From a virus (taxonomy: Duplodnaviria > Heunggongvirae > Uroviricota > Caudoviricetes), in IMG/VR virus record IMGVR_UViG_2534681759_000004: a DNA stretch of 4,874 nt, one strand, 5' to 3'. A program made the translations under genes and the position numbers. Under the pieces are notes generated by a model. It did no database searches, was not told the origin of the DNA, and saw only the letters and a list, made by a program, of their open reading frames with translations. Positions 1,001-4,197 of the stretch are shown piece by piece (position 1 is the stretch's first letter; each line of letters opens with the position of its first letter).

Positions 1001-4000
1001 AATATGACACGCCGATCACCCGGACCATCACGTCGGCAAACATTGACCGTCTGCGTTTTACTTTCGGCGTGCAGGCACTGGTGGAAACCACCTCAAAGGG
1101 GGACAGGAATCCATCGGAAGTCCGCCTGCTGGTTCAGATACAACGTAACGGTGGCTGGGTGACGGAAAAAGACATCACCATTAAGGGCAAAACCACCTCG
1201 CAGTATCTGGCCTCGGTGGTGGTGGGTAACCTGCCGCCGCGCCCGTTCAATATACGGATGCGCAGGATGACGCCGGACAGCACCACAGACCAGCTGCAGA
1301 ACAAAACGCTCTGGTCGTCATACACCGAAATCATCGATGTGAAACAGTGCTACCCGAACACGGCACTGGTCGGCGTGCAGGTGGATTCGGAGCAGTTCGG
1401 CAGCCAGCAGGTGAGCCGTAATTATCATCTGCGCGGGCGCATTCTGCAGGTGCCGTCGAACTATAACCCGCAGACGCGGCAATACAGCGGTATCTGGGAC
1501 GGAACGTTTAAGCCAGCATACAGCAACAACATGGCCTGGTGTCTGTGGGATATGCTGACCCATCCGCGCTACGGCATGGGGAAACGTCTTGGTGCGGCGG
1601 ATGTGGACAAATGGGCGCTGTATGTCATCGGCCAGCACTGCGACCAGTCGGTGCCGGACGGCTTTGGCGGCACGGAGCCGCGCATCACCTGTAATGCGTA
1701 CCTGACCACACAGCGCAAGGCGTGGGATGTGCTCAGTGATTTCTGCTCTGCGATGCGCTGTATGCCGGTATGGAACGGGCAGACGCTGACGTTCGTGCAG
1801 GACCGACCGTCGGATAAGGTGTGGATCTATAACCGCAGTAATGTGGTGATGCCGGATGATGGCGCGCCGTTCCGCTACAGTTTCAGCGCCCTGAAGGACC
1901 GCCATAATGCCGTTGAGGTGAACTGGATTGACCCGAACAACGGCTGGGAGACGGCGACAGAGCTTGTTGAAGATACGCAGGCCATTGCCCGTTACGGTCG
2001 TAATGTCACGAAGATGGATGCCTTTGGTTGTACCAGTCGGGGGCAGGCACACCGCGCCGGGCTGTGGCTGATTAAAACGGAACTGCTGGAAACGCAGACC
2101 GTGGACTTCAGCGTGGGTGCCGAAGGGCTTCGCCATGTACCGGGCGATGTCATTGAAATCTGCGATGATGACTATGCCGGTATCCGCACCGGCGGGCGCG
2201 TGCTGGCGGTAAACAGCCAGACCCGGACGCTGACGCTCGACCGTGAAATCACGCTGCCATCTTCCGGCACCACGCTGATAAGCCTGGTTGACGGGCAGGG
2301 GAGTCCGGTCAGCGTGGAGGTTCAGTCCGTCACCGACGGCGTGAAGGTGAAAGTGAGCCGTGTTCCTGACGGCGTTGCTGAATACAGCGTATGGGGGCTG
2401 AAGCTGCCGACGTTGCGCCAGCGCCTGTTCCGCTGCGTGAGTATCCGTGAGAACGATGACGGCACGTATGCCATCACCGCCGTGCAGCATGTGCCGGAGA
2501 AAGAGGCCATCGTGGATAACGGGGCGCACTTTGACGGCGACCAGAGCGGCACGGTGAATGGTGTCACGCCGCCCGCGGTGCAGCACCTGACTGCCGAAGT
2601 CACCGCAGACAGCGGGGAGTATCAGGTACTGGCCCGCTGGGACACGCCGAAGGTGGTGAAGGGCGTGAGCTTTATGCTTCGCCTGACCGTGGCCGCGGAT
2701 GAAGGCATTGAGCGGCTGGTCAGCACGGCCCGGACGGCGGAAACCACATACCGCTTCACACAACTGGCGCTGGGGAACTACAGGCTGACAGTCCGGGCAG
2801 TAAATGCGTGGGGGCAGCAGGGCGATCCGGCGTCGGTATCGTTCCGGATTGCCGCACCGGCAGCGCCGTCGCGGATTGAGCTGACGCCGGGCTATTTTCA
2901 GATAACCGCCACGCCGCATCTTGCGGTTTATGACCCGACGGTACAGTTTGAGTTCTGGTTCTCGGAAAAACGGATTGCGGATATCAGGCAGGTTGAAACC
3001 AGCGCGCGTTATCTTGGTACGGCACTGTACTGGATAGCCGCCAGTATCAATATCAAACCGGGCCATGATTATTATTTTTACGTTCGCAGTGTGAACACCG
3101 TTGGCAAATCGGCATTCGTGGAGGCTGTCGGTCAGCCGAGTGATGATGCATCAGGCTATCTGGATTTTTTCAAAGGCGAGATAGGGAAAACCCATCTGGC
3201 TCAGGAGCTGTGGACGCAGATTGATAACGGTCAGCTTGCGCCTGACCTGACTGAAATCAGGACGTCCATAACGGATGTCAGCAATGAAATAACACAGACC
3301 GTCAATAAGAAACTGGAAGACCAGAGTGCAGCGATCCAGCAGATACAGAAGGTTCAGGTTGATACAAATAATAACCTGAACAGCATGTGGGCAGTGAAGC
3401 TGCAGCAGATGCAGGACGGACGCCTTTATATTGCGGGTATCGGTGCCGGTATTGAGAACACCCCTGACGGCATGCAGAGTCAGGTGCTGCTGGCAGCAGA
3501 CAGGATTGCGATGATTAATCCTGCGAATGGCAACACAAAGCCGATGTTTGTTGGTCAGGGCGATCAGATATTCATGAATGAAGTGTTCCTGAAACGCCTG
3601 ACGGCCCCCACCATTACCAGCGGCGGTAATCCTCCGGCATTTTCCCTGACATCAGACGGGAGACTGACGGCGAAAAATGCGGATATCAGTGGTAGTGTGA
3701 ATGCGAACTCAGGAACGCTCAACAATGTCACGATTAACGAGAACTGTCGGGTTCTGGGAAAATTGTCCGCCAACCAGATTGAAGGCGATCTCGTTAAAAC
3801 AGTGGGCAAAGCTTTCCCCCGGGACTCCCGTGCACCGGAGCGGTGGCCATCAGGAACCATTACCGTCAGGGTTTATGACGATCAGCCGTTTGACCGGCAG
3901 ATTGTTATTCCGGCGGTGGCATTCAGTGGCGCTAAGCATGAGAGAGAGCATACTGATATTTACTCCTCATGCCGTCTGATAGTGCGGAAAAACGGTGCTG

Positions 4001-4197
4001 AAATTTATAACCGTACCGCGCTGGATAATACGCTGATTTACAGTGGCGTTATTGATATGCCTGCCGGTCACGGTCACATGACACTGGAGTTTTCGGTGTC
4101 AGCATGGCTGGTAAATAACTGGTATCCCACAGCAAGCATCAGCGATTTGCTGGTTGTGGTGATGAAGAAGGCCACAGCAGGCATCACGATTAGCTGA
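913..4197 (+). CDS. J: Host specificity / central tail fibre protein J, main body (1094 codons); the listed GTG start at 913 is probably an artefact, as the J-like frame is open from 883 and homologous from 904
   Basis: Long ORF whose translation ([48 protein letters not shown]...) follows lambda J almost residue for residue for about 750 aa, then diverges in the C-terminal third. No SD precedes 913. Joined to 716-892 with two single-C insertions removed, it would give one J protein of about 1159 aa. Confidence 0.9.
2566..3150 (+). other. Two tandem fibronectin type III-like domains inside J (about 2566-2860 and 2861-3150)
   Basis: Two consecutive segments of about 95 aa each end in the same strand motif: ...[24 protein letters not shown] and ...[21 protein letters not shown] (Y-x-x-x-V-R-A/S-V-N-x-x-G). 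Each also has an upstream W/Y-containing strand ([10 protein letters not shown] / [16 protein letters not shown]). This is the classic FN3 signature, and FN3 domains have been described in lambda J. Boundaries are approximate. Confidence 0.5.

Follow-up and report, generated by a model that had tools for sequence, protein, structure and literature searches.

The host specificity protein J (gpJ) at the tail tip of phage lambda consists, in order, of a hub, two FNIII domains, an alpha-helical shaft (about residues 809-861), a beta-sheet prism and finally the receptor-binding domain (RBD) (PMC11101478). Its RBD recognizes LamB, and in the lambda class a few point mutations are enough to switch J among LamB, OmpC and OmpF (PMC11336670). 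Several related J proteins use OmpC. For the A8/phi330 class, this is backed by three independent results. A double mutant in lamB and ompC receives DNA from chimeras carrying A8 gpJ only if ompC is provided (PMC11338833), and PDB entry 9wcb contains A8 gpJ together with the OmpC protein of EDL933. On the Keio ompC knockout, phage phi330 fails, and complementation restores it (PMC12502783). While A8 gpJ belongs to a chimera made by Eligo Bioscience, phi330 (vB_EcoS_phi330) is a natural Stx2a phage, and its RBD is almost identical to the A8 RBD (PDB 9wca, 9wcb). A further OmpC binder is the central tail fibre of phage 434 (OL657226), which has the same J architecture. A modular J C-terminus is textbook lambdoid mosaicism and already known; to retarget lambda particles, engineers have built J chimeras fused at residue 964 of lambda J (PMC11338833). 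In this work, we analyzed the J gene in a stretch of 4,874 nucleotides (nt) from a Caudoviricetes virus (IMG/VR record IMGVR_UViG_2534681759_000004), referred to as “the window”, with emphasis on its C-terminal third and on the receptor that the encoded RBD might recognize.

The window J gene has the same gene position as that of lambda, and its product has the same domain order as lambda gpJ (P03749; PDB 8iyk, 8xck and 8xcj). A phmmer comparison with 8iyk_J gave E = 0 and 2033 bits. Pfam matches were found to FNIII-A_GpJ (E = 8e-41), Phage-tail_3 (E = 9.6e-43), Ig_J, Ig_J_second (amino acids (aa) 651-753 of the J open reading frame, ORF), Phage_Tail_Tip (aa 807-935) and Ig_GpJ_C (PF12421; aa 964-1094, E = 5.3e-37), those to Ig_J, Ig_J_second and Phage_Tail_Tip all exceeding the curated Pfam cut-offs. 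Judged by these matches, the product has the full gpJ architecture, with a hub, two immunoglobulin (Ig)-like/FNIII domains, a tail-tip fibre and a C-terminal Ig-like RBD. It is 97% identical to lambda gpJ over the first two thirds of the protein and 92% identical in the lower prism, but differs from it in the shaft (17% identity, with 28 additional aa), in the upper prism (53%) and in the RBD (43%). Our comparison with related genes suggests that the 3' third of J probably comprises at least two exchange units placed on a lambda-like body and parted by a conserved stretch where crossovers fall. The features discussed below are listed in Table 1.

Table 1. Features of the 4,874-nt window (positions in window nt).
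Feature	Position	Strand	Comparison with lambda and basis
Gene I	23-655		ORF list
J, tail tip / host specificity gene	716-4197	+	ORFs 716-1000 and 913-4197; lambda J structures, Pfam
Lambda-like part of J: hub and two Ig-like/FNIII domains	913-3180	+	95% nt and 97.1% aa identity
GC change point of J	2892		0.604 upstream, 0.505 downstream; likelihood change-point scan, window and lambda
Alpha-helical shaft cassette	3181-3360	+	16.7% aa identity to lambda aa 822-853; 28 additional aa (84 nt)
Upper beta-sheet prism (central straight fibre)	3361-3540	+	62% nt and 53.3% aa identity
Conserved lower-prism island	3541-3720	+	89% nt and 91.7% aa identity to lambda aa 914-973
RBD cassette (Ig-like, Ig_GpJ_C) and stop	3721-4197	+	42.8% aa identity (3721-4194)
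lom-like outer membrane protein gene	4265-4863	+	ORFs 4265-4699 and 4693-4863; 3' of J

With NC_001416 as the lambda reference, a maximum chi-square scan of J placed the breakpoint at nt 3184 (chi2 = 817), the mismatch to lambda being 4.7% on its left and 55.7% on its right. In the lambda protein this is residue 821/822, which belongs to the helical shaft. The original prediction, made from the letters of the window, that J tracks lambda up to about nt 3180 and then breaks away is therefore borne out. At the protein level, ORF aa 1-756 share 97.1% identity with lambda, compared with about 49% for the last 338 aa (165/339), which means that the C-terminal portion is clearly not as lambda-like as the N-terminal one. 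The accompanying claim of a much more divergent C-terminal third is correct overall, but the divergence is not uniform, as it is interrupted by the well conserved island at nt 3541-3720. On the lambda map, nt 3181-3540 cover the shaft and the upper prism, nt 3541-3720 the lower prism, and the last 158 codons the RBD. The additional length of the shaft is made up of two insertions relative to lambda (63 and 21 nt). An origin of these 84 nt by internal duplication was also considered and rejected, as Tandem Repeats Finder found nothing.

Nine related J genes were compared with the window segment by segment at the nucleotide level, and four of them carry the argument. The J gene of 2G7b is lambda-like until the island and has an RBD of the window type afterwards; its identities to the window are 96, 27, 61, 89 and 97% for the hub, shaft, upper prism, lower prism and RBD (the same order is used below). 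That of phiSTEC1575-Stx2k is window-like until the RBD, which is of the 434 type (98, 100, 100, 99 and 52%); its hub, shaft and prism are thus 98-100% identical to those of the window. The JLK-2012 gene is unlike the window throughout, the RBD excepted (73, 74, 60, 73 and 96%), and VT1-Sakai has a different hub but a shaft, prism and RBD as in the window (76, 92, 95, 92 and 98%). In addition, the protein P0061 joins a shaft of the window type to an RBD of the A8 type. The 434-class RBD, also present in Stx2a_WGPS6, is 41% identical to that of the window and has longer loops, and it represents an alternative cassette at the same site. As seen in this segment-wise comparison, the cassettes move INDEPENDENTLY, with the upper prism co-travelling with the shaft cassette in the phages compared. 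As the island is conserved and the cassettes assort independently, a single swapped block extending from nt 3180 to the stop codon is ruled out.

The crossovers were mapped by counting mismatches in 30-nt bins. phiSTEC1575 has zero mismatches to the window from nt 3120 to about nt 3690 and one mismatch in 3690-3719, and it is divergent beyond. In 2G7b and JLK-2012, near-identity to the window begins at about nt 3720. The junction at nt 3180 had been taken as the edge of a swapped receptor-binding module. An exchangeable RBD does exist, as 2G7b and phiSTEC1575 illustrate, but nt 3180 bounds the shaft/upper-prism cassette, and that of the RBD begins near nt 3720, some 540 nt downstream. In the arrangement that we propose, a first cassette (nt 3184-3540) would encode two parts of the central tail fibre, its alpha-helical shaft and its upper beta-prism, and a second one (nt about 3720-4194) would encode the Ig-like RBD. 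The 180-nt lower-prism island, conserved among the lambda-like J alleles compared, would supply the homology for the crossovers that reassort the two cassettes. We infer such a role in homologous recombination because the breakpoints fall in the island or at its edge, although the breakpoint positions come from a handful of genomes, which weakens this part of the proposal. The equivalent of the engineers' fusion point at lambda residue 964 is window nt 3691, which is also inside the island.

It could be argued that the divergence downstream of the break reflects faster drift or diversifying selection within one vertically inherited gene, with no exchange of modules. Receptor-binding regions are known for quick evolution, and divergence does peak in the RBD loops. 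Yet identity changes stepwise within a few bases, the 84-nt length difference is located at the junction itself, and cassettes that are 95-100% identical sit inside genes only 52-76% identical in other parts. The last observation contradicts drift, and we regard this explanation as hardly credible.

The content of guanine plus cytosine (GC) had been proposed as an additional sign of a mosaic junction. There is a real drop in GC along the gene, so the impression of AT-richer DNA downstream was justified, but the change point is located at nt 2892 rather than 3180. It sits near the start of the second Ig-like (FNIII-2) domain, about 290 nt upstream of the identity break. Moreover, GC is equal on both sides of nt 3180 (0.504 in 2901-3180 versus 0.503 in 3181-3540). 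The change point of lambda J itself is the homologous base (position 3680 of the lambda locus, about 17679 in the lambda genome, equal to window nt 2892), and because of this the GC step is no mark of a mosaic junction. It is an old feature of the J gene family, and GC content was ruled out as a marker for the swap.

To place the window RBD among those with a known receptor, it was aligned with the respective reference sequences, the A8 RBD being rebuilt from its PDB alignment. Amino acid identity is 43% to lambda (LamB), 41% to 434 (OmpC) and 61% to phi330 (OmpC). The window RBD is therefore not of the lambda class, which agrees with the earlier view that it represents a distinct sequence class. 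Its nearest counterpart with a proven receptor is the OmpC-binding A8/phi330 RBD, which is also the best PDB match in both sequence and fold. Identity is 61-65% to phi330, Lambda_2E9 and BP-4795, with two insertions or deletions in loops. Members of the A8/phi330 class are 77-89% identical to one another, and the window RBD, being outside that range, is a sister class of the A8/phi330 type and not a member of it. The two have in common the N-terminal strand and the C-terminal stretch, and the A8/phi330 scaffold and its rim-contacting NNW.P motif are present in the window RBD as well (ANNWTP in A8/phi330, VNNWYP in the window). Gifsy-1 J, another OmpC binder, was set aside as a reference, as its authors report only 18% C-terminal identity to lambda.

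Based on this similarity, OmpC is the most likely receptor of the window RBD. This is a best guess taken only from the nearest characterized relative, and we hold it tentatively, with somewhat less than even confidence. Several points weigh against it. In phi330, the hairpin ENFNSNNQQS (E953-S962) is predicted to point into the OmpC barrel (PMC12502783), and in the window this stretch is replaced by REHTD, 5 aa shorter. Loop 1 of phi330 is short and predicted to lack OmpC contact (PMC12502783), and that of the window (DSRAPERW) is 4 aa longer than the TSTY or TNSY of the A8/phi330 type. Of the three loops discussed in PMC12502783, two are thus different between the window RBD and A8/phi330, and loops 1 and 2 of the window have exactly the lengths of those in lambda. 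Furthermore, since a few point mutations can switch the receptor of J, an identity of 61% says little about specificity. Finally, a literature search turned up no receptor assignment for RBDs of this type; PMC12315714 holds no receptor data for the PhiR phages, which that paper does not describe, and the text of PMC11101478 gives no residue numbers for lambda loops L1-L4. With respect to the published phi330 loop numbering (E953-S962 and others), it should be mentioned that it follows a shortened protein: in PV189401 (our locus L011, 17195-20610), J is annotated with 1042 aa from an internal start, and a short separate ORF lies upstream.

The loop lengths raise the question of whether the window RBD might bind LamB or a LamB variant, its difference from lambda being due to divergence within a LamB-binding lineage. 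Besides the lengths of loops 1 and 2, the WPSG motif after loop 1 is common to the window and lambda and missing from A8/phi330, and the window lacks the long phi330 hairpin for which entry into the OmpC barrel is predicted. On the other hand, RBD identity to lambda is much lower than that to the A8/2E9 group, and the scaffold and the C-terminal NNW.PT region match those of the OmpC binders and not that of lambda. We therefore consider LamB binding unlikely.

Another outer-membrane protein to which no natural J has been assigned, for example OmpF, PhoE or another porin, could also serve as the receptor. Loops 1 and 2 differ from those of every receptor-labelled class and it is there that the differences are concentrated; lambda-class J RBDs reach OmpF and OmpC by few changes; and the literature searched yielded no receptor for the window class. 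However, all characterized members of the family natively use LamB or OmpC, and the very broad occurrence of this RBD among E. coli lineages would be equally compatible with a porin that is abundant and conserved, such as OmpC. A receptor of this kind seems rather improbable. The window RBD combines the scaffold of an OmpC binder with loops of lambda length and is devoid of the barrel-entering hairpin. That the commonest J RBD in E. coli prophages uses a receptor or a docking mode undescribed for any J protein is, in our opinion, a doubtful proposition.

The fold of the RBD was examined by an AlphaFold2 monomer run on the last 380 aa of J. The predicted local distance difference test (pLDDT) score was 75-95 for the RBD, less than 50 for the shaft and prism, and 50.9 as the overall mean. 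Such low values for the shaft and prism are expected because the trimer is interleaved. A Foldseek search of the PDB returned 9wca (closed A8 gpJ fibre), 8xck (closed lambda fibre), 8xcj (lambda-LamB) and 9wcb (A8-OmpC) as the top four matches, confirming that the C-terminal domain has the fold of a gpJ RBD, with lambda and A8 fibres as its closest structures. The model also contains low-confidence helices (residues 35-57 and 65-105, counted in the 380-aa query), the second of which is about 20 residues longer than the lower shaft helix of lambda (residues 841-861, PMC11101478). The model is confident for the RBD only, and the longer shaft helix should be taken as a low-confidence prediction, which counts against relying on it. 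A hand-made heptad-register score for the shaft proved uninformative and was not used. If fully helical, the 28 extra shaft residues would lengthen the fibre by an estimated 4 nm or so (0.15 nm per residue). If real, this longer shaft, which usually accompanies the window RBD, could make it easier for the fibre to get through O-antigen or capsule to the outer membrane.

Judging from the solved fibres of lambda and A8, which are homologous, J would act as a trimer, with three copies forming the central tail fibre. Loops of the RBDs would enter a trimeric outer-membrane porin at its extracellular mouth. With the RBD bases moving apart and the prism twisting, the shaft helices would flip and refold in part, after which the FNIII strings would come loose and the tail tip would open. 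This sequence of events is taken from the cryo-electron microscopy account of lambda J (PMC11101478). For the window J it is inferred from the solved homologues, to which domain homology provides the link. A separate observation concerns the island. The equivalent of lambda F924 is encoded by window nt 3571-3573, in the conserved lower-prism island, and is still F. In lambda, the F924S substitution in J allows escape from the Gifsy-1 abortive-infection nuclease HepS, which senses J (PMC13043305). The window J is thus predicted to trigger HepS.

The abundance of this allele was surveyed in 5426 complete E. coli genomes. The window RBD type was matched in 3377 of them (about 62%) and the shaft/upper-prism segment in 3605. 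For the RBD segment, the best match was at least 90% identical in 2942 records, and four E. coli genomes, two of which are named as enterotoxigenic E. coli (ETEC), carry it with 100% nucleotide identity. By comparison, the lambda RBD was found by megablast in 98 genomes (less than 2%), all with at least 99% identity and with no overlap with the window class; the carriers listed are laboratory strains, DE3 lysogens among them. Lambda, with a LamB-binding head so seldom seen in complete genomes, is therefore an unrepresentative reference. The phage collection contained 53 records with the window RBD at a protein identity of at least 95%, including Stx2a-converting phages and PPompW prophages. 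Among E. coli prophages, no J type is commoner than the cassette combination of the window; the allele first regarded as divergent is the norm, and lambda is an outlier. In the searchable literature, this most frequent head apparently has no experimentally assigned receptor, and such an assignment would serve both the prediction of prophage host range and the design of delivery vectors.

The window is 94-97% identical to many temperate E. coli phages. Its closest complete E. coli genome, NZ_LR882978, is 98.6% identical, and the J gene there, 3480 nt long and intact, bears the annotation phage attachment tail tip protein J. The closest prophage and temperate-phage relatives are 94-98.6% identical over the whole window, and the annotation of such genes in E. 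coli prophages already reads host specificity protein J or phage attachment tail tip protein J. The C-terminal third is shared, at 92.5-100% nucleotide identity, with VT1-Sakai, PPompW, PhiR46_1, PhiR55_1, vB_EcoS-640R1, 2G7b and ETEC chromosomes, and RBD identity is 94-99% to PhiR46_1, 2G7b, VT1-Sakai, PPompW and JLK-2012. Relative to the E. coli prophage J relatives, only three frameshifting insertions or deletions and scattered substitutions are specific to the window. The gene is well understood, and the J allele studied here is a known and very common one, with annotations in thousands of genomes.

While the relatives have an intact J gene of 3480 nt (1159 aa), the window J does not occupy one continuous frame of about 1130-1165 codons. 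Its frame is broken near nt 891-901 by one extra C at nt 891, within a C run, and one extra base near nt 899, within ATAT. Neither insertion is present in the 6-7 relatives compared (lambda included), and an exact 36-mer across the frameshift site had no match in the GTDB species representatives. With its reading frame broken, this copy of J may be non-functional, or the sequence may contain errors. The window J could be a dead gene in a decaying prophage, with a C-terminal module that is now without function. Two single-base insertions split J and one single-base deletion splits lom, none of them being present in the relatives compared (up to seven for J and four for lom), and the J gene of VT1-Sakai is likewise annotated as truncated by mutation. 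However, homopolymer runs are the site of at least two of the three changes (C run, nt 891; A run, nt 4681), and a short AT repeat is that of the third. As this is the usual signature of sequencing error, such an error is plausible. Furthermore, the remainder of J is free of stop codons over 1094 codons and is, from nt 3001 on, 99.9% identical to an intact gene. We consider a dead gene a serious possibility that falls a little short of an even chance.

Damage was also noticed among J C-terminal fragments in the database (P0039, P0040, P0114, P0050 and P0001), several of which have local frameshifts or an internal duplication in the RBD. Broken J genes therefore seem to be frequent among E. coli prophage copies or assemblies.

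The window as a whole is the end of a lambda-like tail gene cluster and co-aligns with lambda 14790-19597. Its gene order, I - J - lom, is supported alike by the ORFs, the lambda alignment and the annotated neighbours in relatives. The lom gene is split by a 1-nt deletion in an A5 run at nt 4681 (4676-4685), which changes GGGGAAAAAG to GGGGAAAAG; the four aligned relatives show no such loss. An antisense open frame of 582 codons is present on the minus strand (window 1318-3066). Frames of this kind are usual in GC-rich coding DNA, and nothing points to a gene. Compared with lambda lom (our locus L001, 4966-5586), the lom allele of the window is 30-88% identical per 60-nt block. An aligned stretch of 90 nt is near-identical to phiSTEC1575 (one substitution besides the deletion in the window) and to the closest E. 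coli genome. As phiSTEC1575 has a near-identical lom but a different RBD, lom looks like another independent module.

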